From: Clostridiales bacterium
Lineage (GTDB): Bacteria > Bacillota > Clostridia > Monoglobales > WRBX01
Length of the DNA stretch: 64,000 bases
Direction of reading: 5' to 3'
NCBI GenBank assembly: GCA_031263785.1
Contig: JAISFC010000026.1
Coordinates: 2,922 to 66,921 of the forward strand
Shown: positions 5,979 through 57,800 of the stretch, piece after piece
Numbering within the stretch: the stretch's first letter is position 1
Layout: each line of letters opens with the position of its first letter
Made by a program: the position numbers and the translations under genes
Notes under the pieces: model-generated
Seen by the model: only the letters and a program-made list of their open reading frames with translations
Told to the model about the DNA's origin: nothing
Databases searched by the model: none

Positions 5979-6007
5979 TTGACAAACCGTCCAATTTTTG
6001 ATATACT
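5979..6007 (+). promoter_or_regulatory. sigma-A type promoter for tRNA-Met
   Basis: TTGACA (5979-5984), 17-nt spacer, TATACT (6002-6007). The tRNA starts 26 nt downstream. Confidence 0.7.
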
Positions 6008-6032: not shown

Positions 6033-6109
6033 GGCGGCGTAGCTCAGCCGGTTAGAGCATACGGTTCATACCCGTAAGGTCGGGCGTTCGATTCGCCCCG
6101 CCGCTACCA
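6033..6109 (+). tRNA. tRNA-Met (anticodon CAU), elongator type, CCA encoded
   Basis: The cloverleaf was read by hand. Acceptor GGCGGCG/CGCCGCT, anticodon stem TACGG/CCGTA with loop TTCATAC, T-arm GGGCG-TTCGATT-CGCCC. It has no three G-C pairs in the anticodon stem, so it is not an initiator. It is very similar to the Bacillus elongator tRNA-Met. tRNA-Ile2 (lysidine) is not formally excluded. Confidence 0.9.
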
Positions 6110-6110
6110 C

Positions 6111-6272
6111 GTCGGAACAAAGTTCGCTTACTCCGTTTTCGAGCAAAACCCGCTCGAAAACATCCGCGCGCTTCCTTGTTCCTCCTTCTCGCAAAAAGGC
6201 ACGCTGCTGCGTCGCCTAAGCCCTTGCAAGCGCGGGCTTTTTACGGCGACTTGCGCTACCACCTTTTTGCGG
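6111..6272. ncRNA. copy A of an unnamed ~165-nt structured element (transcribed strand unresolved)
   Basis: Aligns end to end with 48873-49036 and 57242-57413 (reverse complement). Five helices are maintained by compensatory changes (see findings). It starts 2 nt after the tRNA-Met CCA. Confidence 0.6.
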
Positions 6273-6490
6273 CTAAACCACCTTCAAAATAGATATATGT
6301 ATATGGAAGATTTGTGAAATCTTCTTCTTTTTTTCCTTAAAACCACCTTCAAAATAAATATTTATATTTAAGAGTTTTATGAAAACTCATTCTTTTCGCT
6401 TTAAAACCACCTTCAAAATAGATAAATATATGTGAAAGTTTTGCGAAAACTTCTTCTTTTTTTCTTAAAACCACTTTCAAGTCACATAAA
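6273..6490. repeat. 3.5 tandem 64-65-bp modules (AAAACCACCTTCAAAATA box, AT-rich segment, 8-9-bp hairpin, T-run)
   Basis: The CCA of the conserved box is at 6278, 6343, 6407 and 6471. Each unit has a hairpin such as GAAGATTT-GTG-AAATCTTC followed by TTCTTTTTTT. Confidence 0.8.
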
Positions 6491-6560
6491 CGTATTTAGT
6501 TAAATTGCTTACGCATTTATTTTATTTCATTCAAAGATTTTCGCAAGAAAATCTTCCACA

Positions 6561-7779: not shown

Positions 7780-9162
7780 TCAATCCATTTTTACGCGCGT
7801 GCCGCCGGGGGTGTCCTCGATTGTGACGCCCATTTGCGTGAGTTTATCGCGAATTTGGTCGGCGAGCGCAAAATTACGCGCCGCCCGCGCCGCCTCACGC
7901 TCGGACACCAGCCGCGTTATTTCCCCGTCCCCGTCCGCTCCGTTTGCCGCTTCATCGGGGAGAATTCGCAATATTCCCGCAAGCTCTCGCATGAGTAAAA
8001 GCGTCTGCACGATTGTCTCCGCAGACGCGCCCTCCGCAAGCGTGTTGATTTCGCGCGTTAAATCGAACAAAACCGCTATCGCCGCAGCTGTATTGAAGTC
8101 GTCGTCCAGCGCGGCTAGGAACTTTTGCTTGTACGCCGCCGTATCCAGCGTTTGCGTGCCGTTTGTGCCGTTTTCCCGCAGGAATTCAAGATTACTCACG
8201 CAACTTTTCAGCCGCTCCAGCCCCGCCTCCGCCTGTTTGATTAGGTCAAACGAAAAATTAATAGGGCTGCGGTAGTGCGCGCTCAGCATGAAAAACCGCA
8301 CCGCGTCCGCACTTACCTGCTTCAAAATATCCCGCACTGTGAAAAAATTCCCCAAAGACTTGCTCATTTTGCGATTATCCACATTAATATACCCATTATG
8401 CAGCCAAAAATTTGCGAATTGGCGCCCGTTCGCCGCCTCACTCTGCGCGACTTCGTTCTCGTGATGCGGAAATATCAAGTCCTGCCCGCCGCTGTGTATG
8501 TCGATATTCGCGCCCAAAAACTTGTTCGCCATCGTGGAACACTCGATGTGCCACCCCGGACGCCCCTCGCCCCACGGACTGTCCCACGCAATTTCGTCCG
8601 CCTCTTTCCGCCGCTTCCAGAGCGCAAAATCCGCAGGCGCGCGCTTCTCTTCGCCCACCTCTATCCTCGCGCCCGCCTCCAGCTCGTCCAGCGGCTGATG
8701 CGAAAGCTTGCCGTATTCCGCGAATTTTTCCGTAGCGAAGTACACATTCCCCGCCATCTCGTACGCGTACTCCTTGTCGACAAGCCGCTGAATAAACTCG
8801 ATAATTTCGGGGATTGTGTCGGTCGCCTTGGGCGCATACGTGGGCTTGCGAATTTTCAGCGCCTCTGCGTCCTTTTGGTACTCCCCGATGTACTTCTCCC
8901 CCAATTCCCGCACCGTAATGCCCTCTTCACGCGCGCGGTTTATCATCTTGTCGTCGACATCGGTAAAATTCTGCACATATATGACCTTGTTCCCCAAATA
9001 TTCAAAATAGCCGCGCAGTGCGTCAAAAATAATGAACGGTCGCGCGTTGCCTATGTGAAAAAAATTATAGACGGTCGGTCCGCAAGAATAAAAGCGCACC
9101 TCGCCCTCTTTAATCGGGATAAATTCCTCTTTTTTCCGCGTTAGCGAATTATACAATTTCAT
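7780..9162 (-). CDS. cysS: cysteine--tRNA ligase
   Basis: 460 aa. HIGH motif (FHIGNARP), KMSKS motif (KMSKSLGNF), and the WHIECS zinc site typical of CysRS. Confidence 0.95.
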   Translation of the reverse strand: MKLYNSLTRKKEEFIPIKEGEVRFYSCGPTVYNFFHIGNARPFIIFDALRGYFEYLGNKVIYVQNFTDVDDKMINRAREEGITVRELGEKYIGEYQKDAEALKIRKPTYAPKATDTIPEIIEFIQRLVDKEYAYEMAGNVYFATEKFAEYGKLSHQPLDELEAGARIEVGEEKRAPADFALWKRRKEADEIAWDSPWGEGRPGWHIECSTMANKFLGANIDIHSGGQDLIFPHHENEVAQSEAANGRQFANFWLHNGYINVDNRKMSKSLGNFFTVRDILKQVSADAVRFFMLSAHYRSPINFSFDLIKQAEAGLERLKSCVSNLEFLRENGTNGTQTLDTAAYKQKFLAALDDDFNTAAAIAVLFDLTREINTLAEGASAETIVQTLLLMRELAGILRILPDEAANGADGDGEITRLVSEREAARAARNFALADQIRDKLTQMGVTIEDTPGGTRVKMD

Positions 9163-9196
9163 ATTATTCCCCCCGTTATCGGTTTGATTGCGACTC

Positions 9197-9510
9197 GTGT
9201 CGATTGTTCGATTTTTTTGCGATTGCTTTCTCTATTGTCGATTCTTCGATTTTTTTGCGGTTGACGTTGTCGATTGTTCAATTTTTTTGCGATTGTCGTT
9301 CCCGTTGTCGATTCTTCGATTTTTTTGCGATTACTTTGTCGATTCTTGAATTTTCTTGCGGTTGGCTTTGTCGATTGTTCGATTTTCCTGCGGTTGACTT
9401 TGTCGATTCTTCGATTTTCTTGCGGTTGGCTTTGTCGATTGCTCAATTTTTTTGCGGTTGGAACTCCTATTGTCGATTCTTCGATTTTTTTGCGATTCGC
9501 GTTTATCCCA
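9197..9510. repeat. 9-unit tandem array (units 31-38 bp; core TGTCGATTSTTCGATTTTTTTGCGRTTG) filling the cysS upstream region
   Basis: The TCGATT anchor is at 9200, 9238, 9270, 9308, 9339, 9371, 9403, 9435 and 9473. Confidence 0.9.
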
Positions 9511-44370: not shown

Positions 44371-47346
44371 TTAAAGAGCTTTCCCTAAATTTAGTTTTGC
44401 CCCTGCCGCTTTAACCGCTCCGTCAACCACTTGCTGTGGCGCGGAAACGGCATGACCGGGCGCGGGCGCAATTTCTTTTTGATGTCTGATTTCCGCCATG
44501 GTTCCGTGTAAAGTTGCTTGCCCCCGTTCGCCGCCCCTATCGGCTATGCCCTCTTTTACCCGCATAGTTTCACCTCTTTTAGTCTTCATGAACTCATAAT
44601 GACTGTCCCGCATAAGAGTGCAATCATCTATGAATTTTTCTACACTTTCAGCGCACGTCGCACGCATTTCGGGATTTTCTCCGTGCGCAGATTTTATGGC
44701 TTGAAGCACGTTTTCCACCCTGTCCCCAATGCCCTCTTTTGTCAGAAATTCATCACCTTTCGGCGTATTTCCCGTTTCCCACGCGTACCCGCTTGTGTAG
44801 GAGGTCAACGAATACAAATACTCCTTGACATTTTCGGGCGTCGGATTCCGCACTGCCGCGCCCTCTTGCGCAATAATCCGCTCCCGATGCAAACGTTTAT
44901 ACTCGGGAACATTCACCTTGACTATGGGCACACTCAAGTCGGGTCCGCCCAACTCTTGAGCGGCTTGCCTGTGCGCATCGTTCACCTCGGGTGAAAAGCA
45001 CAACACGCAATTAGGCTTTATTTTATCGCCGTTCGCCGCTTCCCTGTAAATCACAAACTCGTTATGTATGTATATTGTCCGCTTGGATGTTTCCGAGGAC
45101 GTCATATAATCCATTCCGCCTTTTGACGTGAGGAAACGGCTGTTATCCTTGCCCTGCGAGAAAACATCACGCGGTGCGGACATAGCAAATTGATCCGGGC
45201 TGATTTCCACGAACCCCAACTTTACCACCTCCGCGTTATTCTCGCCGCGGTCGGCATGCCCCATGTTGTAATTCGTCACCAAAGACGTGCATAAGTAGGA
45301 CTTTCCGCGCTCACGACCGTCAAAATCCGCCACCGTCCCTCCCCCGCCATAGGCATTGAGCGTGTGGTTCAAAATAGAGAAATCTTCGCCGTTTAGCTGC
45401 AATACTTTAACTCCGGAGACCTCGTCTATGCTCCTGTCTTTGATTGCGTCAAGGTTCGTCAGGCTCGCCTTTAATTCTTGCCCGTACAGCCCCCGAATAT
45501 CTTTTTCCATGGTGAAAAGATTTAGTCCACTGTGCAAATTCCCGCTTTTGAAGTCAGCCATCGTCTTTTCCGCCATTTGGGTCAATTGCGCCAAATCGGT
45601 CATTTCATTGATTCGCTCCCATTCGGCAACCACGGGTTTGAATTCACCCACCGCCTCCCTGCCGATTGCTTTTTCTATCTCTCCGAGCTTTTTGCTGTCG
45701 ATATGGTGTTTTAAGTAATATGAAATAGTATCCCTTAATTCTTTACGGTCAAAATCGAACCCCGCATAGTCGCATCCATACTTCAAGGCGCAGATAATAT
45801 TCTTGCAAGCCTGCACTTTCGCCCGCTCCGTCCCAATGAGCGTCTTTTCTTTCATGCGGCTCGCCCATGTATCGGTTAAATCCGCAAGTCCGCCAACGTT
45901 TTTGACTTCTTCATACCCTTTTAAGTTCAGCTTCATAAATATTTGCATGTTGCTCCGCTCCGCAGGAGAAAGGTTGTCTCTGCCCAAAAATTCGGTCATA
46001 ACCTCCTTATTGCTGTTAAACCTATCGGTGACCACACGAAACAGATTCTCATTGAATTTTTCCATGGAGCCGCCGAGTTTTTTATACGTGTCAACGATAT
46101 TTTCCAACGACGTTTTTTCTAACGCGTCGTTCAGCTTAAATTTAAGCTTAGGAGCTTCCACATATTTCAGCAGAATGTCCACATTTTTTGCGCCAATCAA
46201 ATCCCGTGCTTTTTGGGAATACAGCTCGGAATTTCCGCTTTTAAGAATACCAAACCCATATTTGGCGACAGCCTGCTCAGCAAATTCGCCGTGTCGGATG
46301 CCATAAACCGCAAATACAGCGGATTTATGCCGCTCCATGAATTGCTCGTAGGCTTCTTTTTGCTCCCCGAACGCTGATTCATACATGCGGGTCAAGAGCT
46401 TCTTCATATCAATCGTGCCTTTTAAGCCCGCATATGCGCCTTTTCCTGTAATCACACTTTCGGCAATCGCGCGGCAGTTTGCAAAATTCAGCATATGATA
46501 AGTACCCTCCGACAGCCGTTTTATGTTGACGCGGAAGGCCCTTTTGTCCTTAATATTTGCATGAATTCTATTCCACATCGGTAGCTTTTCATTAATAAAA
46601 TCAACCGCGTTTCCGCCACGCTTGACAATCCCCGTTCCTATCTCCCTTAAAGCGTTTTTCGCCACATAGCCAACGCTCCCGCGGATTTTTGCAAAACCGT
46701 CAAAGATGTTTTGTCCCTTTTCGGGCTCCTTGCGCTTATATCCTTTCTTTTCAGCAGCTGTCGCAAATGTCGGATTATCAAACAAATAGTTATGCGCCCT
46801 ACCCAAATATTCTCCATGCCAATCCAGGAATTTATTCGATATTTCCGCGTCAAATAATTTGTGCGGCAAACGGCATAACAATTCATTTCTATCCCCCTGC
46901 TCCTGCTTCACGACAGCTTTCAGAATTACCGCTTTTTCCGCTTGCATTTCCTGCGGCAATTTATAAAACGGCATGTTGACACCTATCGCTTCAAGCGCAC
47001 CGTCAACGCTGTTTAGGTTCGTATTTTTTATTTGCCCAAGCCATTCCTGCATACGCTTTTCTTCGGATTGCCGTATTTCAGGCGTAAACGCCTCCTCCGC
47101 GAAATAATAGACAGAATCCGCCCACTTCTGATACAGTTTTTCCGCAAGCTCGGGGTTTGTAACGATTATTCGATTCTCCGGATTCCCTTGATCCAGATTA
47201 CCCGCTGCAAGAACACTCGCAAACTCATCAAAATACATGCTGTTACGGGGGTCATTTAAGGTATCAGAAAAAACGCCTAAATTGCCATTGGCAATCAACA
47301 GCTGATGTTCAAATCTGTCAAAATCATTTTTGCTTTTTAACCACAT
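44371..47346 (-). CDS. large (991 aa) cytoplasmic hypothetical protein, no recognisable family
   Basis: Long uninterrupted ORF with no signal peptide or TM segment. GGTGATGAG lies upstream of the ATG. A candidate promoter TTGACG-17-TATTAT lies ~100 nt upstream. Confidence 0.7.
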   Translation of the reverse strand: MWLKSKNDFDRFEHQLLIANGNLGVFSDTLNDPRNSMYFDEFASVLAAGNLDQGNPENRIIVTNPELAEKLYQKWADSVYYFAEEAFTPEIRQSEEKRMQEWLGQIKNTNLNSVDGALEAIGVNMPFYKLPQEMQAEKAVILKAVVKQEQGDRNELLCRLPHKLFDAEISNKFLDWHGEYLGRAHNYLFDNPTFATAAEKKGYKRKEPEKGQNIFDGFAKIRGSVGYVAKNALREIGTGIVKRGGNAVDFINEKLPMWNRIHANIKDKRAFRVNIKRLSEGTYHMLNFANCRAIAESVITGKGAYAGLKGTIDMKKLLTRMYESAFGEQKEAYEQFMERHKSAVFAVYGIRHGEFAEQAVAKYGFGILKSGNSELYSQKARDLIGAKNVDILLKYVEAPKLKFKLNDALEKTSLENIVDTYKKLGGSMEKFNENLFRVVTDRFNSNKEVMTEFLGRDNLSPAERSNMQIFMKLNLKGYEEVKNVGGLADLTDTWASRMKEKTLIGTERAKVQACKNIICALKYGCDYAGFDFDRKELRDTISYYLKHHIDSKKLGEIEKAIGREAVGEFKPVVAEWERINEMTDLAQLTQMAEKTMADFKSGNLHSGLNLFTMEKDIRGLYGQELKASLTNLDAIKDRSIDEVSGVKVLQLNGEDFSILNHTLNAYGGGGTVADFDGRERGKSYLCTSLVTNYNMGHADRGENNAEVVKLGFVEISPDQFAMSAPRDVFSQGKDNSRFLTSKGGMDYMTSSETSKRTIYIHNEFVIYREAANGDKIKPNCVLCFSPEVNDAHRQAAQELGGPDLSVPIVKVNVPEYKRLHRERIIAQEGAAVRNPTPENVKEYLYSLTSYTSGYAWETGNTPKGDEFLTKEGIGDRVENVLQAIKSAHGENPEMRATCAESVEKFIDDCTLMRDSHYEFMKTKRGETMRVKEGIADRGGERGQATLHGTMAEIRHQKEIAPAPGHAVSAPQQVVDGAVKAAGAKLNLGKAL

Positions 47347-48535: not shown

Positions 48536-48744
48536 TTTTATGCTCCCTCAAACAATTTACTTCCATCTCGATAACTCGCGCAACCCACAATTACTAAAAT
48601 TCCTTCCATATAATAAGAATATAACACATTATCAAACAAATTGCAACCTTTTTCGCGGACAAAATTCGCAGTTGTACGTTTTTCGCAACAAAAAAGCCGT
48701 CAAATGACCTATCTTATTCATTATTCATTTGCTTGCCTGCAGAG

Positions 48745-48872
48745 TTTTCCGTCAAAAATGAAACTGCATCAAATTCCCAAATGCATTTATTGATTTTGGA
48801 GTGGTTTTTAACGCAAAAAAGGAGTTTTCACCAAACTCCCAAATACATTTATTTCTTTTTAGGTGGTTTTAA
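48745..48872. repeat. two tandem ~61-bp modules related to those at 6273-6490
   Basis: Contains GGTGGTTTTAAA (48861-48872) and GAGTGGTTTTTAA (48800-48812), each preceded by CCCAAATRCATTTAT and a hairpin (GGAGTTTTCACCAAACTCC). Confidence 0.7.
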
Positions 48873-49036
48873 ACCGCAAAAAGGTGGTAGTGAGTAAGTT
48901 TGCGTAAAGACGGCGCGTTTACAAGCCGTTAGCAAACGCGAACGTGCCTTTTTGCGGAGAAGGAGGAGCAAGGGAGCGGGCGGATGTTTTCTTTTGCGTA
49001 CAAAAGAAAACGGAGCAAAGCGGACTTTGCTCCTCC
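48873..49036. ncRNA. copy B of the unnamed structured element, directly abutting the 3' end of tRNA-Ser
   Basis: See findings. H1 48873-48883/48946-48956, H2 48897-48902/48931-48936, H3 48909-48913/48924-48928, H5 48985-48995/49000-49010, H4 48960-48970/49026-49036. Confidence 0.6.
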
Positions 49037-49130
49037 TTGGCGGAGAATGAGAGATTCGAACTCTCGCGCCGGGATTCCCCGACCTAACGGTTTAGCAAAC
49101 CGTCCTCTTCAACCAACTTGAGTAATTCTC
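49037..49130 (-). tRNA. tRNA-Ser (anticodon GCU), class II with long variable arm, CCA encoded
   Basis: Reverse complement is GGAGAATTACTCAAGTTGGTTGAAGAGGACGGTTTGCTAAACCGTTAGGTCGGGGAATCCCGGCGCGAGAGTTCGAATCTCTCATTCTCCGCCA. Acceptor GGAGAAT/ATTCTCC, anticodon loop TTGCTAA, T-arm GAGAG-TTCGAAT-CTCTC. Confidence 0.9.
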
Positions 49131-49172
49131 CACAAGTTTTTATGAACTTTTATCTATATTATTTATACATTA

Positions 49173-49309: not shown

Positions 49310-50596
49310 TTAATCGTCCAACGCAAATTCCTTCAAACCCAGCGCATGTATATCCTTTTGCGCTATCGTCACTTCAAACACGGTGCCCTCGTCCGTGAAT
49401 TCCTTCTTTTCCACTTGAGCGGCGGCGTAAATTTTCGCCACCATATCGCTGTTTTCGTACGGAATCAGCAAATTAGCCTTCACGCGTTTGTCGGGCAGCC
49501 GCTGCAAAATCCGCGCCAGCAGTTCGTCGATTCCCGCCCCTGTTTTCGCCGAAATCGCGACAGCATCATCACGATTGAGCGCGCCACTCCCTCCGTCATC
49601 CTCCGCGCCACTCAACAAATCCGCCTTATTATACACCTTCAGCACGGGCTTCCGCTCGGTGTTCAGCTCGCCAATCAGCGCATCCACCACCTGCTCATGC
49701 CCCTCCCGCTCCGCCGAAAATGCGTCAATCACGTGCAAAATCACATCGCACAGCATGGACTCCTCCAGCGTGGAGCTAAACGCGCGTACAAGATGGTGCG
49801 GCAGCTTGCGAATAAACCCCACCGTATCTATAAAAATCACCTGCGCGCCGTCGGGCATGGTCAGCTTGCGCGCGATGGGGTCGAGGGTTGCAAAAAGCAT
49901 GTCTTTCGCCGTCGTATTCGCGTTTGTGAGGGCATTGAGCAGGGTCGACTTGCCCGCGTTGGTGTACCCCAAAAGCGCGACTTGCTGCGCCCCGTCCTTC
50001 GTGCGCGAACGCCGCATGGTGACGCGATTTTTCGCGACCTCGTCCAGCTGCTCCTCCAACGCGGAAATGCGCTTGCGGATGCGTCGACGGTCAGTTTCCA
50101 GCTTAGTCTCGCCCGGTCCACGCGCCCCGACACCCACGCCCGCCCGCGAAATCCCCTCGTCCAGCGCACTTCCTGCAAGCCTCGGCAGCATGTACCTCAA
50201 TTGCGCCAGCTCCACCTGCAGCTTCCCCTCGTTGCTCTCAGCGCGGCTCGCAAAAATATCCAAAATCAGGCAGCTTCGGTCGATAATCGGCACACCCAAG
50301 CTCCCGTTCAAATTGCGCGTCTGTATGCCCGTCAGCTCCTCATCAAAAATCGCGACATCAACGGCATTTTGTCTAATAAACTCCGCCACCTCGTCCAGCT
50401 TGCCCTCGCCGATGTACGTCGCCCCCTCTGGCGCGTGACGATTTTGCACAAACGTGCCGACAACCTCCAGCCCCGCCGTCTCCGCAAGGTCGCCCAGCTC
50501 GCTCATGGACTCCTCCGTCGTATCCCGCATGCGGTCGCGCAGCCCCAAATGCACCCCCACCAAAACCGCTTTATCCCGCTTGTCCTGCATATCCAT
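49310..50596 (-). CDS. hflX: GTPase HflX
   Basis: G1 GYTNAGKSTLLN, G3 DTVGFI, and an HflX N-terminal domain. ATG at 50594-50596. Confidence 0.9.
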   Translation of the reverse strand: MDMQDKRDKAVLVGVHLGLRDRMRDTTEESMSELGDLAETAGLEVVGTFVQNRHAPEGATYIGEGKLDEVAEFIRQNAVDVAIFDEELTGIQTRNLNGSLGVPIIDRSCLILDIFASRAESNEGKLQVELAQLRYMLPRLAGSALDEGISRAGVGVGARGPGETKLETDRRRIRKRISALEEQLDEVAKNRVTMRRSRTKDGAQQVALLGYTNAGKSTLLNALTNANTTAKDMLFATLDPIARKLTMPDGAQVIFIDTVGFIRKLPHHLVRAFSSTLEESMLCDVILHVIDAFSAEREGHEQVVDALIGELNTERKPVLKVYNKADLLSGAEDDGGSGALNRDDAVAISAKTGAGIDELLARILQRLPDKRVKANLLIPYENSDMVAKIYAAAQVEKKEFTDEGTVFEVTIAQKDIHALGLKEFALDD

Positions 50597-50643
50597 AAAA
50601 TTATCCTCTCCGCTCGTTATTCCCGCCAACTCCGCTACTTTCG

Positions 50644-51786
50644 TCAAGCGCCTTGGTGATTCCAATAATAAATAGTTCTTGACGGGAAATCTATGCTTTC
50701 ATTTTTTACCGAATTATTAAATAGATTCTCATTCGTTTTATATCTTTCAAACATCGCAATATTCTCGCCGAAAAACTTCAGCGGAATATCGCCCCTATTA
50801 TATTGAACATCCACAAAAATGCGGTCATCCTTCTCCGGCACGTGTGTGTATGCGAAGAAAACATCTCCTTCTTTTGTATAGGGGAAGCCCGTTATTAATA
50901 AACCACAATATAATTTATCATTATTGTCACCGATTAAGATACCGGTCGGCGTTAATAGAAACATTTTATCGTAATTGAAAGCTTTAATCCGCGGACTCTC
51001 GTTCAAAAAGCTTCGATATTCCAAATACTTAGACAGCTCCGCTTTATAATCGACATCATCGGCAAAAACATCTTTCAAGGTAATTTGCTCGCCTGTGCGC
51101 GCGTCAAAATTCATCCCGAAGCGGTATAACGCGTGATGAACCACCACCCCTTGAGCCATCCTCTCAACTCTTTTATCCGGGACCGAAAAATCTATAGAAT
51201 AGGCAATTATATTATTAAAAGCATATCTGCATACGCCAATAGTCATATCATTGCCACCGGGATTGTAGATGCTGCCATATTCACCGTTAGGCGCTATTCC
51301 GTACACAATTTCGTAATCATCGAGAATATCGTCAGTATCAATTAATTCTCCTACGCGGTCCTCTTTCAGTTTATATATTTCAACGCCGTACCTATCGGGA
51401 TTTTTAGCAATATCATTAACCTTATCTATAACTTTCCGCCCTATACCGCTTGCTATTGCGGAGTCTTTCAACGGCACGGGATTTTTATACAAATAAGTCT
51501 TAACCTTTCCGTACTTATTATCGACGCTGCCTTCCACGTGAGGAGCGTAGATGTCTATATCGTATAAATAGATGTGATCATTTACAAAATAATCAGAAAG
51601 CCCCTCCGCCTTTTGCAATATAAATTCTTTGGGTTGGACTATCGGCGATTTATACTTATATTCTATTTGTTGCGCGTTGTTTGCCGACGAATCGGGTGTC
51701 TCTACAGGTGCCGTATCATTAGTGCCACAGCCCGTCAGCGCAATAACAAACACGGCTGTTAAAGCCACTTTATTAAATTTTAACAT
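50644..51786 (-). CDS. lipoprotein, function unknown
   Basis: ATG at 51784-51786 with GAGGAGG upstream. Sequence MLKFNKVALTAVFVIALTGCG includes a lipobox. Confidence 0.7.
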   Translation of the reverse strand: MLKFNKVALTAVFVIALTGCGTNDTAPVETPDSSANNAQQIEYKYKSPIVQPKEFILQKAEGLSDYFVNDHIYLYDIDIYAPHVEGSVDNKYGKVKTYLYKNPVPLKDSAIASGIGRKVIDKVNDIAKNPDRYGVEIYKLKEDRVGELIDTDDILDDYEIVYGIAPNGEYGSIYNPGGNDMTIGVCRYAFNNIIAYSIDFSVPDKRVERMAQGVVVHHALYRFGMNFDARTGEQITLKDVFADDVDYKAELSKYLEYRSFLNESPRIKAFNYDKMFLLTPTGILIGDNNDKLYCGLLITGFPYTKEGDVFFAYTHVPEKDDRIFVDVQYNRGDIPLKFFGENIAMFERYKTNENLFNNSVKNESIDFPSRTIYYWNHQGA

Positions 51787-52711
51787 ATCCCGCCTCCTCG
51801 ACAACCGCCTTCCCCTCGTCGGACAAAACCAGTTGCATGAATCGGCGCGCGAATGAATTTTGCGGTTCATCCGCCCGAATCACAACGTAATATTGCGCAA
51901 CAAACGGATATGTGCCATTGGCAAAATTCGCGGGGTTAGGCTGGACGCCGTTTATCGCGAGCAACTTCGTATTTTCCTTGATATATTGCACATCGGTGAA
52001 GTAATAATAAGAATAGCCTATCGAATATTTAGAATTCTCATAATTAGCGATAACGTCCACCAATCCCTGCATCGACTCGGCAAGCTCCGTAACCATGTTG
52101 TCGATTTCCGTCTTACCCATGACTAAATCCAGCATTCCGTCCTGCGACCCGCTATTTTCGTTCCGCTGATACGCAATGATTTTGGCATCGTCGCCGCCGA
52201 CATTCTTCCAGTTCGTAATTTTTCCGCTATATATATCGACGATTTGCTGCTTGGTTAAGGATTTAACGGGGTTGTCTTTGTTGACAAGAAAAACGAGACC
52301 GTCACGCGCAATGGGTTGGCTTTCCACTTCGACATCGACGTGTTGGTATACCCCCGCGCTCGGACTCGTGGTAAAAATAATATCCTTTTTAGCTCCTCTT
52401 AAAGCGTCAAAAGCGAGATAGGTTCTGTCGTGTTTCAGATTTTCGTCAATTTCGTCCTGTGTCGCGCCGGTAGTTTTTAGCGCAAATAACTGCGTTAGGG
52501 GCAGCGTCACAGTTGAGCCGCTTACCCTCTGAAAATCGGCTATGTTAAACCTTGTCGCAAGCGCAATCGGAGTAGCGGCAGCAGACGATGTCACGTTCGG
52601 GCTTTCCGCAATTTGTTGAGTGCCGGACTTATTCCACTGAACAAAATAAACATAAGCCCCTATCGCCACAATCGCGACCGCAATAATCGTAATTACAATT
52701 GATTTTTTCAT
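51773..52711 (-). CDS. PstS-like (phosphate-binding-type) substrate-binding protein with N-terminal membrane anchor
   Basis: ATG at 52709-52711. The TM anchor is MKKSIVITIIAVAIVAIGAYVYF. The body resembles type 2 periplasmic binding proteins (ISGSTVTLPL-type SGSTV motif). No pstCAB genes are adjacent. Confidence 0.55.
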   Translation of the reverse strand: MKKSIVITIIAVAIVAIGAYVYFVQWNKSGTQQIAESPNVTSSAAATPIALATRFNIADFQRVSGSTVTLPLTQLFALKTTGATQDEIDENLKHDRTYLAFDALRGAKKDIIFTTSPSAGVYQHVDVEVESQPIARDGLVFLVNKDNPVKSLTKQQIVDIYSGKITNWKNVGGDDAKIIAYQRNENSGSQDGMLDLVMGKTEIDNMVTELAESMQGLVDVIANYENSKYSIGYSYYYFTDVQYIKENTKLLAINGVQPNPANFANGTYPFVAQYYVVIRADEPQNSFARRFMQLVLSDEGKAVVEEAGYVKI

Positions 52712-53662: not shown

Positions 53663-56443
53663 ATGTTAAAAAAAGTTGTAACCCTCTGCCTCCTATTCTC
53701 CCTCATGATTACAGGGGTACTATCGTTTTTCCCCTCATTAAGCAACTCGGTTCAGGCTCCGAATTTCGCGCAGGCGGCTTCCGCGGACTTCAACGGCAAA
53801 TTTTTCATCAACAAGGATTTTTCCGGTTATAAAGCATCGGACTATTCTTTGGTCAAAACAACGATATACAGCTCCGCGGACATGGAATCGGCGAACATTC
53901 CGCTTTCCACATGGGCAGCTCCCGCGGACCAGCTCAAATACTGCTCGCAAAACGGCTATGTGCCTTCCGGTACCACCGTTTACAACGTAACCATCCACTA
54001 CACTTATGCGGGTCAGAATCAATATGAGCGACTGGGGTACGGCGTGTCGGGCGCATACAAGCAGGTTTGGTCTACGTCCGCCACCACCTTCAACAGCTCG
54101 ACTCTCGCGTATAATGAGCCCGTATCCGCCTCGCTTCCCGCTTCCGACGTCGGCTCAAAGGGCACCGGCACAGTTTCATCGCCCTACTTCCCCGGGATTC
54201 AGGCAGCCGCGCCCACTCCAACGCCCACCTCCGCGTCGCAAAGTTCCATGCCCGGCACCGGCAAATTCTTCTTCCGCACCACCGGCGCAGCTGAACACTT
54301 CCAATCATTATACGTCGGCTCGCAATTGGCGGGTACAATCGCCGCGTACGACTGGCAGACAGGGGCATCGCTGGGGTATTCCACACCAATGTACTACCTG
54401 TACGTGCAGACGAATACGGGGCAGAACGACTCATCGCTGAGCTATGTCGTCGACGGAAGTACAGGGCATTTCGTCAACATTTTCACCACGTCCGCTACCT
54501 CCACCTCGCAGTCCTATTGGGTGACGTCCGTCAACTCGACAAACGGGCTGTACCTCTCCCACTTATCCTCGAACGGCTATTCGACATACCTCGGCAACGG
54601 CTCGCTTTCCAACCCGTATTCCTTGGGACAAAGCGCACCTGCAGTGACTGCCGCGCCCAATCCCAGCCCCACCGTCGGGACGCCGTCAAACATAACATAC
54701 TCCTCGCTGACCTATGCCGGCTATTTATACGCACCATCCACTCCGACGGGCGCAACCTTAACGCGCTGGGAATACAAAACCACGTCAAACGGAACGTGGT
54801 CCGATACCGGTTCCAACAACTCATATTACGCGCCTTCCGTCACGGAGTTTGGCTACTTCTTCCGAATCCGCTATGACGCCCTTTCAGGCTATCAAGGCGG
54901 ACCCGTGTATACAGCGCAAGTTGGTCCGATAACAGTTCCTCCGACACCCTCACCGACACCTTCACCCTCACCGACGCCTTCACCGACTCCATCACCCACA
55001 CCGTCACCCACTCCGTCGCCCACTCCGTCTCCGACACCTTCACCCACTCCGTCTCCGACGCCTTCACCCACTCCTTCGCCCACGCCTTCACCAACTCCAT
55101 CACCGACGCCATCTCCCACACCGTCACCTACACCCTCACCAACTCCTTCACCTACACCATCTCCCACTCCATCTCCGACTCCGTCGCCCTCTCCCATCCC
55201 AAAATACAACGTATCATTCAACACAAACGGCGGCGCACCCACCCCCCCAACTCAGCTCATATCGCTGAACGGACTCGTACAAAAGCCGACAAGTCCGCTC
55301 AAGGCGGGGCTAACCTTCGCGGGCTGGTTCACCAACAACTCATTCGTAACGCTGTGGAATTTCACCTCCAACGTCGTGACCGGGGCGATGACCCTGTACG
55401 CGCGGTGGATTTCGGAAATTTCCGTGGACGTGATTCCCGACCAAATATTCACGGGCGGTCCGCGGGAACCCGCAATAATCGTTCGCAGCGGCTCGGACGT
55501 CCTGAAGAAAAACGTGGATTACACGGTGGATTACGGCAATAATTCCAACATCGGCAAGGCGACGGCGGAGATACGCTTTATCGGGAATTATTTGGGGACG
55601 GAGCCTATTGCGGTGCAGTTTAACATCATTGTAAGCTCGCCGACTCCCACACCCACCTCGAACGTTTCGCCCACGCCCACCTCGAGCGTTTCACCCACGC
55701 CCACCTCAAGCGCACAGCCTACACCTACGGGAAGCCCGTCTCAACCGTCGGCTCCGTTATTGTCCCCCTCGCCAACCGGCAACTCCACTCCGACGCCCAC
55801 GAACAACGGCGGCGGCAACGGCGGCAGCAGCGGCAAAGCGACCCCATCACCGTCTCCGACAGCGGCAAATCCGAGCCCGACCTCCAACAAGCCCTCCATA
55901 CTTTTCGACGATGTGTACGGGCATTGGGCGGAGGACGAAATTTACGACATGGTGGAGCGGGGCATCGCGGAAGGCATGGGCGACGGCACATTCGCCCCGA
56001 ACAGGGCAATAACGCGGGCAGAAATGGTGAAAATGCTCGCGATTATGAGCGGCGACCCACTCGGCGGACGCGAGCCGTTTTTGGACGTGTCGATTGGCGA
56101 CTGGCACGCGCCATATATCGCTTGGGGCTGGAATAAAGGGGTCGTTAAGGGCTATGACGCCATAACCTTCTCGCCGAACCAAACGATTACACGGCAGGAA
56201 ATGATAACGATGACCGCGCGATATTTGCAGTATAAGGGCATAATCCTGCCCGAAGCAGATGTAAATTTCGAGTTCGCGGACAAAGCTAACATCAGCGATT
56301 GGGCAGCGGACGCCGTGGAGGTTGCGAGGAAAACCGGGCTTGCGGAAGGCTTTTACGAGACATTCGGACGCCGATTCTTCTACCCGAACGAATACGCAAC
56401 CCGCGCAGAAGCTGTGGTAATCCTACTTCGCATATTAAGCTAA
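53663..56443 (+). CDS. S-layer-homology (SLH) anchored cell-surface protein with PT-rich linkers and a Listeria-Bacteroides (Flg_new) repeat
   Basis: Signal peptide present. About 20 PTPS repeats are encoded at ~54937-55200. [10 protein letters not shown]...FAGWF...LYARW is a Flg_new-type repeat. There are three C-terminal SLH repeats ([41 protein letters not shown]...). Confidence 0.85.
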
Positions 56444-56700
56444 TCTCTCAAAAAATCCGCAAATGCGGCAGTGCAATACCTCGACCAAACGAATACCAAC
56501 CCACGTGGAAGCTGTGGTAATCCTACTTCGATATTACATTAATCTCTCAAAAAATCCACAAAAATTCGCAAATGCTGCAGCGCAACGCTCCGACCGACCG
56601 AATACCAACCCACGTGGAAGCTGTGGTAATCCTACTTCGCATATGACATTAATCTCTTTAAAAATCCGCAAATGCGGCGGCTCAATGCTCCGAGGCTTGT
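56386..56700. repeat. three tandem 101-109-bp copies of the SLH gene's 3' end plus a small palindrome
   Basis: AATAC anchor at 56391, 56492 and 56601. Each copy contains GAAGCTGTGGTAATCCTACTTCG and a palindrome: CCGCAAATGCGG in copies 1 and 3 (first at 56457-56468), the variant TCGCAAATGCTG in copy 2. Confidence 0.85.
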
Positions 56701-56876: not shown

Positions 56877-57053
56877 CTAAATCACTTTAATAATTTTTAT
56901 TTCATCACAATATATTTCCATATTTCCCAAATAAAAACTTTCTCTGCCGTCATTTTCGTCAGCAGGGTTATATTGGTCAATAAAACCGCTTATGGTTTCA
57001 CCATTTTTAAACGTTACAGTTACATTTTTTTCTTCATATTGTAACCAATCCAT
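56877..57053 (-). CDS. possible 58-aa protein
   Basis: AAGGAGG lies 7 nt upstream of the ATG (57051-57053). Sequence MDWLQYEEKNVTVTFKNGETISGFIDQYNPADENDGRESFYLGNMEIYCDEIKIIKVI*. Below the ORF-track length cutoff. Confidence 0.45.
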   Translation of the reverse strand: MDWLQYEEKNVTVTFKNGETISGFIDQYNPADENDGRESFYLGNMEIYCDEIKIIKVI

Positions 57054-57175: not shown

Positions 57176-57204
57176 TTGACATTTGCCCCAAATAATGTTA
57201 TAAT
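57176..57204 (+). promoter_or_regulatory. perfect consensus sigma-A promoter reading into element copy C
   Basis: TTGACA (57176-57181), 17 nt, TATAAT (57199-57204). Confidence 0.75.
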
Positions 57205-57241
57205 GAATGTGTAGGAAATAGAGGCTTCGGCTTATGGTTTT

Positions 57242-57413
57242 ACCGCAAAAGGGTGATAGTGAGCAAGTTTGCGTAAAGACGGCGCGCTTGCAAGCCGTTA
57301 GCCAGAGGGGTCCCCGCAAACGCTTGCGTTTGTGGTGAAGAGGAGGAACAAGGAAGCGTACGGATGTTTTCGAGCGATTTTGCTCGAAACCGTAGTAAGC
57401 GACCTTCGCTCCG
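57242..57413. ncRNA. copy C of the unnamed structured element, located in the 5' leader of a two-gene operon
   Basis: H1 57242-57249/57329-57336 (contains a G-T pair), H2 57267-57273/57315-57321, H3 57279-57283/57294-57298, H5 57366-57375/57382-57390. ~90% identical to copy B over the first 60 nt. Confidence 0.6.
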
Positions 57414-57431
57414 ACGAGGAGTGTGTACAAT

Positions 57432-57800
57432 ATGGATATGCTTTCGGCTACTGAAACCTTGCAAAACGAGGTAAGCGCCGGCGCGGGAGAGCTATCGCGT
57501 GTTATTCGTGTCGGCGGCGAACATTTGGCGTCCGCAATTGAATCGCCAAAGACCTCGTCGACGGAAATTCTTGCAATTTCCAACACATTGATAAGCGATA
57601 TATCGCGCACGGCAAACCGCTTGTCCTCACGCATAAACGAGCTCGCGGACCAAACCGTCGCGCGGCAGGAACCCAACGCGGAGGATATTTCGTCGTCAGT
57701 GAGCCACTCGCTGGAGAAACTAATGGAAAACGTCAGCGCGACCATCATAAATATTAAAGACGTCGTACACAACACTTTAAAGAATTTTATCGAAAATTAG
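57432..57800 (+). CDS. hypothetical 122-aa helical protein
   Basis: GAGGAG (57416-57421) lies 10 nt upstream of the ATG at 57432. The sequence is rich in heptad-like S/T/L/I segments (SNTLISDISRTANRLSSRINELADQ). Confidence 0.6.
   Translation: MDMLSATETLQNEVSAGAGELSRVIRVGGEHLASAIESPKTSSTEILAISNTLISDISRTANRLSSRINELADQTVARQEPNAEDISSSVSHSLEKLMENVSATIINIKDVVHNTLKNFIEN

Follow-up and report, generated by a model that had tools for sequence, protein, structure and literature searches.

Gene-less structured cassettes at the CCA ends of tRNA and tmRNA genes: a candidate family of insertion elements with a built-in terminator

Three copies of a structured element in a clostridial contig

A 64,000-nt stretch of a Clostridiales genome (assembly GCA_031263785.1, contig JAISFC010000026.1, positions 2,922 to 66,921; hereafter the window) contains three copies of a hairpin-rich element, two of which directly adjoin the 3' ends of transfer RNA (tRNA) genes. 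Copies A (6110-6276), B (48873-49037) and C (57242-57419) align in full length over ~165-175 nt with a mean column identity of 80%, in agreement with the original prediction, which was made from this sequence alone. A pairwise repeat search of the window links the three to one another (hits I1-I3, I5 and D11), and the core pattern GGAGGANCAAGGNAGCGNNNGGATG occurs three times against an expectation of 0.03. Searching the window with a covariance model (CM) of the core and without filters recovers only these copies, scoring 85 bits for B (48956-49040), 59 bits for A (6107-6191) and 47 bits for C (57336-57419), the next match reaching 13.5 bits. They belong to a family of cassettes of ~130-250 bp that lie directly after the encoded CCA of tRNA or transfer-messenger RNA (tmRNA) genes, in constant orientation and before the gene's own terminator. 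Our judgement is evenly balanced on the reading we prefer, namely that these are gene-less insertion cassettes specific for tRNA ends that carry a terminator of their own.

At the first locus, a tRNA-Met gene (CAT; 6033-6109, plus strand; ARAGORN and Rfam tRNA, 67.4 bits) with an encoded CCA at 6107-6109 is preceded by a TTGACA-17-TATACT promoter (5979-6007, plus). Copy A begins at 6110 on the same strand and comprises hairpin P6 (6114-6134), weakened on the plus strand by A-C mismatches, hairpin H5 (6135-6144/6152-6161), a pyrimidine-rich conserved block (ATCCGCGCGCTTCCTTGTTCCTCCTTCTC; 6162-6190) and a distal domain of helices H1-H3 (6191-6272; type 1 in the nomenclature below), after which come CTAAA and a second CCA (6277-6279). 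It is followed by 3.5 tandem 64-nt units (6277-6534, plus; repeat D3; tandem repeat search TRF: period 64, 3.2 copies), each starting with CCACCTTCAAAATA, continuing with a hairpin and T run that is terminator-like in the tRNA sense, and ending in TTAAAA.

The second locus lies on the minus strand, where a tRNA-Ser gene (GCT, encoded CCA; 49038-49131; ARAGORN, Rfam) with a TTGACA-17-TATACT promoter (49201-49173) abuts copy B at 49037. Here, P6 (49012-49033) and the adjoining GTTTTCTTTT were called by the terminator scan as an intrinsic terminator directly after the tRNA (49033-49012, GGAGCAAAGTCCGCTTTGCTCC GTTTTCTTTT). H5 follows at 48986-48996/49001-49011, one base away from its predicted place (48985-48995/49000-49010), then the conserved block (48958-48985) and a type-1 distal domain (48874-48957). 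Distal to the copy, two units of a CCA-initiated terminator cassette family (48740-48872), related to the copy-A array by inverted repeat I14, include a terminator-like hairpin at 48840-48820. Because the tRNA calls end at 6109 and 49038, copies A and B stand directly after an encoded CCA and in the same orientation to their tRNA, which confirms the tRNA junctions of the original prediction. The 64-nt units of CCA, hairpin, T run and TTAAAA, found at the two tRNA loci alike, make up a separate small repeat family in the window. Their conserved 20-mer returned 18 matches when metagenomes were scanned with it, which is chance level.

Copy C shares the orientation of B (minus strand in the tRNA sense) and has no adjoining tRNA according to ARAGORN and Rfam. 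Its type-1 domain contains a 9-nt insertion, its H5 resembles that of copy A, its P6 is degenerate and its end reads GACGAGG instead of GACGTGG; beyond its distal end, a CCA occupies 57237-57239 of the minus strand.

A family at tRNA and tmRNA ends

Matches to the 20-base core pattern in one-genome-per-species contigs yielded at least 120 stretches (family loci, given as L numbers). Context analyses covered 121 loci or copies of up to 8 kb, the CM alignment 126 copies and the flank scans 113 copies. Among the matches listed, the hosts are nearly all Oscillospiraceae-like (Oscillibacter, Dysosmobacter, Flavonifractor, Pseudoflavonifractor, Intestinimonas, Flintibacter, Limivicinus and others), comprising metagenome-assembled genomes and four cultured isolates; carriers in culture include Oscillibacter valericigenes An890 (L054), Intestinimonas aquisgranensis CLA-AA-H199 (L042), Flintibacter porci P01025 (L073) and Dysosmobacter sp. 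HCP28S3_G4 (L049). The link to tRNA 3' ends noticed for two window copies is general across this family. A full antisense tRNA or tmRNA 3' end adjoins 83 of the 121 evaluable copies, the element ending in ...CTTTGCTCCGACGTGG ahead of the antisense acceptor stem and T loop, and 18 further copies border TGG with a tRNA fragment or a tRNA missed by the regular expression; altogether, ~85% of copies have TGG and an antisense tRNA or tmRNA 3' end at this border. The junction reads ACGTGG in 82 copies, and the adjoining genes represent 30 anticodon types plus tmRNA (ARAGORN; tmRNA cases confirmed by cmscan).

Broken junctions are mostly due to an unrelated island that entered the tRNA gene, so that 8-12 nt of the tRNA 3' end stay attached to the element, as at L116, next to a ParB-like gene, and at others. 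The tRNA fragments beside the copies of L077, L079 and L087 do not match the adjacent tRNA. As to the islands themselves, the one at L116 (1-330) starts with a ParB-like nuclease gene, and downstream of the element in L024 and L021 an island gene for a large serine recombinase starts within ~100 nt of the displaced tRNA fragment. A match to the abiF RNA (RF03085) was seen at L026 (4798-4834; 40.8 bits, gathering threshold 37 bits).

The 3' ends of tRNA and tmRNA genes are classic integration sites, and the copies might therefore be remnants of integrase-dependent islands, either an attP arm left by the tRNA (the attL side) or a miniature cis-mobilisable element. This would agree with the tRNA 3' fragments and island ends found beside copies at several loci, with tandem mini-units that have 11-32 nt copies of a tRNA 3' end as their borders and with the serine or tyrosine recombinase genes present in a few loci. 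However, almost all of the 121 loci are devoid of integrases, the flanking repeat amounts to CCA at most, and the variety of tRNAs at which a single subfamily is found would be incompatible with a sequence-specific integrase. Moreover, viral contigs are essentially free of the element (1 match to the core pattern among 2.9 million), and hairpin covariation is not expected of arm-type binding sites. An origin from islands is, in our estimate, highly improbable and ranks last among the four alternatives considered here, behind a host terminator module, a small RNA (sRNA) from the tRNA trailer and an RNA from the opposite strand, in this order. The limited repeat, the use of at least five different genes by one subfamily and the rarity of integrases likewise speak against classing it as an integrase-dependent or cis-mobilisable element. 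Separately, tandem ~150-nt units were observed at tRNA-Pro(ggg) in L041 (6440-6780), L012 (5850-6070, minus) and also L084; each ends with 32 nt repeated from the tRNA (T arm, acceptor and CCA), not called as a tRNA by ARAGORN, and then the same terminator. In appearance, these are gene-free integrated units of miniature size.

Anatomy and exchangeable domains

Read in the tRNA sense, the order of parts is CCA, P6, U tract, H5, conserved block and exchangeable distal domain; the opposite strand, which is the plus sense of copies B and C, carries a Shine-Dalgarno (SD)-like sequence and is referred to as the SD-like strand. P6, a local hairpin absent from the original prediction, is GC-rich and lies at or next to the CCA, with the U tract behind it (CGUCGGAGCAAAG-loop-CUUUGCUCCGACG in the family; GGAGCAAAG-loop-CTTTGCTCC at 49012-49033 in B and 6114-6134 in A). 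In H5, the U tract pairs with a downstream A tract, and the apical part is variable. Both the window alignment and the family model reproduce the near-invariant unpaired blocks described earlier, among them the pyrimidine-rich conserved block of ~29 nt (AUCCGCCCGCUCCCUUGCUCCUCCUUUCC; ~52% C, 10% G), which is predicted to be unpaired.

Three types of distal domain can be distinguished. Type 1, the form of the window, has H1 (CCGCAAAAAG.../...CUUUUUGCGG) around H2, H3 and the loop GCGYUURCAA; type 2 is a long hairpin with apical CCAGCGNAGCGG; and type 3 is a short GC hairpin (CCCCGCAAAG...CUUUGUGGGG). Beyond it there is usually a further terminator and a subfamily-specific tail, often ending in a second CCA. 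A second core family has analogous hairpins and the block GAGGAGCAGCAGAAUGAGCG (SD-like sense), and hybrids between the two cores as well as domain swaps exist.

Members of a second, sequence-divergent family were found beside family-1 copies at L089, L106, L017, L021, L040, L025, L115 and L085. They share the architecture described above: CCAGCGAAGCG lies in the distal hairpin, GAGGAGCAGCAGAATGAGCG is the block, and a hairpin of U and A tracts precedes a GC hairpin (CGTCGCAAGCGATATGNCGCTTGCGACG) that ends in TGG at the tRNA. The core of L069 is a hybrid.

Hairpin covariation and the question of strand

Selection for pairing, proposed on the basis of the three window copies, is evident throughout the family. 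In the CM alignment, 95.2% of the cells of H5 and P6 are paired, and double changes affect 23 of 24 pairs (360 cells), values that none of 500 shuffles reaches and that lie far above those of slid controls. In the window, RNAalifold yields 52 pairs, and in 12 of these both bases have changed, consistent with the earlier count of at least ten compensatory double substitutions. The long-range helix H4 (GGAGCAA/TTGCTCC), in which the block pairs with the 3' strand of P6, did not hold up equally well. It covaries in copy A, L025 and the L005 variant, but it shows only 8 compensatory cells family-wide, competes with the local hairpin P6 and is broken whenever P6 changes, including every GGTCGC-type P6. 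Thus, H4 is possibly an alternative pairing rather than an established helix. In the MAFFT alignment of type-1 domains, clean covariation of H2 and H3 is confined to the window-like subtype (A, B, C, L034 and L111), as opposed to the commonest one.

Pairing of this kind could point to a structured RNA made from the SD-like strand, such as a cis-acting leader, a decoy for ribosome binding or a guide-type RNA extending at its 3' end into tRNA antisense. RNAalifold energies favour this strand, both for the three window copies (-59.8 vs -45.7 kcal/mol) and for the type-1 domains (-24.0 vs -13.3), H1 of type 1 has 53 G-U against 3 A-C combinations on it, and a conserved 3' module set against a variable flank recalls a scaffold-plus-guide layout. 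In addition, copy C lies, in the SD-like sense, between a sigma-70-type promoter with 12/12 matches (TTGACA-17-TATAAT with TG; 57176-57204, plus) and an orphan open reading frame (ORF) of 122 amino acids (57432-57800, plus), whose SD sequence GAGGAG overlaps the end of the element. The promoter, however, is peculiar to copy C, with no comparable one at A, B or in the family: copies A and B have strong tRNA promoters and none for the SD-like strand, and promoter-like sites reading into that strand occur in 9 of 113 copies against ~10 in shuffles. The ORF is at best a putative gene; it has no Pfam family above cutoff and no homologue among 5.8 billion proteins. The H1 signal stems almost entirely from two invariant positions, which are perhaps simply unpaired, and H5 and P6 together show no strand bias (59 G-U vs 53 A-C on the SD-like strand), a result that a palindrome test independent of any alignment reproduces. 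The conserved AUG does not open a conserved reading frame, no TnpB/IscB-like gene lies near the copies in the 121 loci, and the Rfam searches described below gave no match of the element to omega-RNA or another family. Since the SD-like strand has no terminator, its transcription would collide head-on with that of the strongly expressed tRNA genes. An RNA from this strand appears very unlikely, and the element is probably not a free-standing structured RNA as first proposed.

Predicted built-in terminators

The terminator features of the element all lie in the tRNA sense. A U tract (at least 5 T in 8 nt) follows P6 in 99 of 100 copies, and by sequence definition the two together represent a canonical intrinsic terminator. 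Within 150 nt beyond the distal domain, terminator-like sites in the tRNA sense are found in 73 of 113 copies, as compared to 34 in the other sense and 2.8 in shuffles. tRNAs without an element in the same loci have an ordinary A-tract/hairpin/U-tract terminator directly behind them; L062 has only P6 and the U tract.

These features would also be expected of a host-selected composite terminator, insulator or 3'-processing module for tRNA and tmRNA units, whose copies remain alike through gene conversion and not transposition, an explanation that is unlikely in our view but is the first to consider next to insertion. The conserved block would then be a fail-safe Rho-loading or protein-binding site, and the distal hairpin with its U run a back-up terminator. 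Apart from the uniform sense of the terminators, such a role could explain why the element is restricted to the last tRNA of an array (as in the five-tRNA array L045), why the block is unpaired, rich in C and poor in G, and why the architecture is kept across divergent families, including the second core with GAGGAGCAGCAGAATGAGCG, its analogous hairpins and the hybrids; compensatory evolution within one genome further indicates that each copy is maintained. On the other hand, many tRNAs of the same genomes manage with a plain terminator, and the module would be redundant, because a native terminator remains behind the element. A Rho utilization (rut) site has no need of at least 20 invariant bases, and conversion can explain neither the first arrival at an unoccupied end nor the presence of one subfamily at tmRNA and several tRNAs.

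A further alternative, which we regard as rather improbable, is a trans-acting sRNA derived from the tRNA 3' trailer. Read-through of P6 and cleavage at the CCA would release an RNA of ~130-170 nt whose CU-rich block sequence CUCCUCCUUUCC could pair with ribosome-binding sites or other G-rich RNAs, with an alternative pairing X/X'' gating access to it. CUCCUCCUUUCC shares a 9-nt identity with CCUCCUUUC, which we take to be the anti-SD tail of 16S rRNA. Firmicute sRNAs such as RsaE/RoxS use C-rich seeds to target SD regions, and E. coli has a regulatory RNA derived from a 3' external transcribed spacer (3'ETS). The orientation of the element is that of the tRNA, a distal terminator closes it off in 73 of 113 copies, and its most conserved part is predicted to be unpaired. 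The block also repeats the 3' strand of P6 and can pair with its 5' strand, a pairing that covaries in copy A and L025, strongly in the L005 variant and weakly overall. Yet a canonical terminator directly follows the tRNA, so that most transcription should stop before the block, the tRNA-sense strand has no excess of G-U (53 vs 59 A-C), and dozens of anti-SD mimics per genome would be expected to be costly.

Insertion-like behaviour

Filled and empty ends can be compared at tRNA-Pro. In L041 and L012, the full tRNA has an empty end (GGACCA/GCAA[GA]ACGCAGAGTG..., the slash marking the junction), followed by a terminator. A filled copy of the tRNA-Pro 3' end, located further downstream in L041 and L012 and also present in L004, reads GGACCA/CGT[CG]G...element...GAA/CAAA[CT]GCAG[AC]GTG... 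and runs into the same terminator as the empty end. Tails ending in CCA are followed by a native-looking terminator in L016, L075, L027, L084, L077 and L087 and by another copy in L006, L108 and L020. All three window copies have (T)AAAA-CCA behind them, succeeded in A and B by the 3.5 and 2 tandem 64-nt CCA-plus-terminator units, respectively. CCA is found on both sides in 8 of 10 members of tail subfamily b, 4 of 6 members of subfamily c and 3 of 3 window copies.

The family also appears to move between genes. One tail subfamily stands beside tRNA-Leu(caa), Leu(gag), Gly(ccc), Arg(ccg), Thr(cgt) and tmRNA in different genomes, and among near-identical elements (88-96% outside the search pattern) 24 of 26 pairs adjoin different tRNAs or tmRNA. 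Pairs within one genome are in some cases very similar (L019/L066, 93%) and in others not. The original prediction had named residence in a larger mobile element as a sign of a BOX-like repeat or a MITE (miniature inverted-repeat transposable element). The copies are not part of any such larger element, but the element itself behaves like an insertion cassette.

If the element is indeed a gene-less insertion cassette, we infer that it would spread as DNA between tRNA ends by means of an unlinked enzyme recognising hairpins together with the tRNA-end context, or alternatively by conversion between already occupied tRNA loci. P6 and the U tract would replace the displaced native terminator, and the cassettes may be tolerated because this self-supplied terminator ends tRNA transcription. 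The constraints on hairpins and sequence would thus reflect the needs of copying and termination and not those of a free-standing regulatory RNA. It is tempting to go further and speculate about a new mobile cassette whose homing to the CCA end, whichever tRNA or tmRNA gene this belongs to, follows a structure-directed mechanism, with an unlinked enzyme of the host or of an element supplying the chemistry, although we put this forward tentatively and consider it doubtful at present. Such a cassette would represent a transposition or recombination system specific for tRNA ends and hitherto undescribed. Homing might involve the recognition of hairpins in single-stranded DNA (ssDNA) or an RNA with a 3' end templated by the flanking tRNA, and the conserved 29-nt block could serve as the recognition site of the homing enzyme.

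Several points weigh against insertion. The only comparison of filled and empty ends concerns the tRNA-Pro 3'-end copies of L041, L012 and L004, which are not orthologous sites of closely related strains, and a metagenome scan for the empty L016 site gave zero matches. A 3-nt CCA is the only candidate target duplication and is missing at the junctions of L004 and L015. There are no terminal inverted repeats, the ends of subfamilies (e.g., AAGGGACGG... and ...CTCCGACGTGG) not being complementary. Clustering of all ORFs of at least 120 amino acids showed that only housekeeping families recur: no recurrent ORF family and no linked transposase, integrase or reverse transcriptase was found within 8 kb in the 121 loci, leaving the reading without a mechanism. 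Conservation peaks in the central block and not at the ends, a pattern that would suit a functional RNA or a site bound by protein better than the termini of a transposon. The many compensatory differences among three copies of one genome would mean that each copy has been maintained over the long term, without a recent burst. In H1 of type 1, pairing at two G-T/T-G positions, both nearly invariant, is possible on the SD-like strand alone. Finally, the G-U versus A-C comparison has low power, since 170 ordinary terminators in the family loci show merely 43 G-U against 24 A-C, and it leaves room for an RNA rather than excluding one.

An attempt to compare orthologous loci via HflX ended at a nearest relative with 67% identity and lost synteny. 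The window organism is phylogenetically isolated, this being the closest HflX (gene 49310-50665) among 5.8 billion proteins, and the gene order around hflX is not conserved.

Searches for known families and rejected candidates

The element matches no known RNA family, as had been anticipated. With Rfam 15, whose families include T-box, 6S, SRP, tmRNA, IS605-orfB motifs, HEARO, raiA and ROOL, the whole window gave only the two tRNAs and an L10 leader at gathering thresholds, and the copy A region nothing relevant at E<=10. Sixteen family loci returned only tRNA, tmRNA and abiF at gathering thresholds, and type-1, type-2 and family-2 loci showed nothing on the element at E<=1. We found no description of it in the full-text literature or in the supplements of a catalogue of structured RNAs from the human microbiome (PMC8040213).

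Several specific candidates were rejected. A T-box is contradicted by the lack of an RF00230 match and by the location downstream of tRNA genes and not upstream of synthetase genes; GGTGGTAGCG of type 1 resembles GGUGGUACCGCG only locally and is missing in types 2 and 3. A small ORF starting at the conserved GGAUG is untenable, as the variable length of H5 gives the copies different frames and stops. A CsrA sponge, suggested by several GGA motifs, does not agree with P6 loops that are often CGAA, CGTA or TCCG and would leave the tRNA linkage unexplained. A palindrome-associated transposable element (PATE) of the IS200/IS605 type or an omega-RNA finds no support, as the 121 loci contain no cluster of TnpA (Y1) or TnpB/IscB ORFs and no Rfam match was obtained. 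Similarly, nothing points to a MITE with an autonomous partner in these loci of up to 8 kb, which hold no transposase-encoding relative; split or autonomous copies enclosing genes were not found in the family loci either.

Relation to known elements

The element comes closest to the small structured repeats of bacteria, but an element tied so precisely to the CCA end of all tRNA and tmRNA genes has, to our knowledge and in the literature searched, not been reported. Like REP/BIME, Correia (Neisseria), ERIC, BOX/RUP (pneumococcal) and bcr1 (Bacillus cereus), it is short, non-coding, multi-copy, gene-less and rich in hairpins with compensatory variation, and it shares with them modular subfamilies, hybrids and the capacity to supply terminators. 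In contrast to these families, it has a fixed CCA junction and orientation at tRNA and tmRNA genes, lacks terminal inverted repeats and a TA-type target duplication, and is most conserved in its central 29-nt block. P6 with the U tract after the last tRNA, and the distal hairpin with its U run, fit the definition of the intrinsic terminators of tRNA operons, but the element is 4-6x longer than these and has a conserved unpaired block, exchangeable distal domains and a second, native terminator behind it.

With IS200/IS605 PATEs and omega/reRNA, the element has in common subterminal hairpins, the absence of inverted repeats and a conserved module against a variable flank, and its near-perfect Watson-Crick stems without strand bias are, as in PATEs, compatible with ssDNA hairpins. 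Unlike PATEs, it has no TnpA/TnpB within 8 kb in the 121 loci, no Rfam IS605 motif and unrelated left and right hairpins, and its target would be the tRNA-end context instead of a 4-5 nt motif. Integrative elements targeting tRNA or tmRNA genes, such as the ssrA islands of Dehalococcoides (PMC3146451), also use the 3' end and form tandem arrays delimited by copies of the gene's 3' end, whereas the element has no integrase, duplicates only CCA and occurs with one subfamily at many tRNAs. Finally, RNAs of the 3'ETS-leuZ type likewise come from the trailer on the 3' side of tRNA transcription units, but the element is multi-copy and insertion-like and has a terminator before its conserved block.

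Other features of the window

The neighbours of the copies are housekeeping genes (rodA, cysS, hflX, rpoA, rpsD, truA, a miaB-like gene and genes for ECF and ABC transporters). A 58-amino-acid ORF with a strong SD sequence (AAGGAGG) and a weak LSM-like match lies at 56877-57053 (minus), downstream of copy C on the strand corresponding to the tRNA sense. Two large proteins have no Pfam domain (44371-47346, 991 amino acids; 50644-51870, 408 amino acids). Directly upstream of the cysteinyl-tRNA synthetase gene (7780-9162, minus), ~8 tandem copies of a 32-nt unit (TTGTCGATTCTTCGATTTTTTTGCGGTTGACT) occupy 9165-9503; a T-box leader would be expected there, and Rfam reports none. Three ~100-nt copies at 56397-56693 repeat the last codons of a surface-protein gene (53663-56443) together with a small hairpin (AAATCCGCAAATGCGGC), which looks like a serial duplication of the 3' end of the gene with its terminator.

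Implications

Should the preferred reading of a gene-less insertion cassette be correct, a major family of gut bacteria would carry dozens of unannotated copies per genome, placed with base-pair precision at the ends of tRNA genes of every kind and of tmRNA genes. Conserved intergenic sequences of a class so far without annotation in Oscillospiraceae genomes would thereby be accounted for; the element could pass for a novel non-coding RNA in structure-based screens. If, instead, the trailer-derived RNA were real, it would represent a growth-rate-coupled, multi-copy anti-SD RNA and thus new biology for the control of translation. The cassettes, in turn, would point to an undiscovered site- or structure-specific activity that handles DNA or RNA and recognises the ends of tRNA genes; tools have been developed more than once from comparable activities, among them tRNA-targeting integrases, TnpB/IscB and bridge RNAs.

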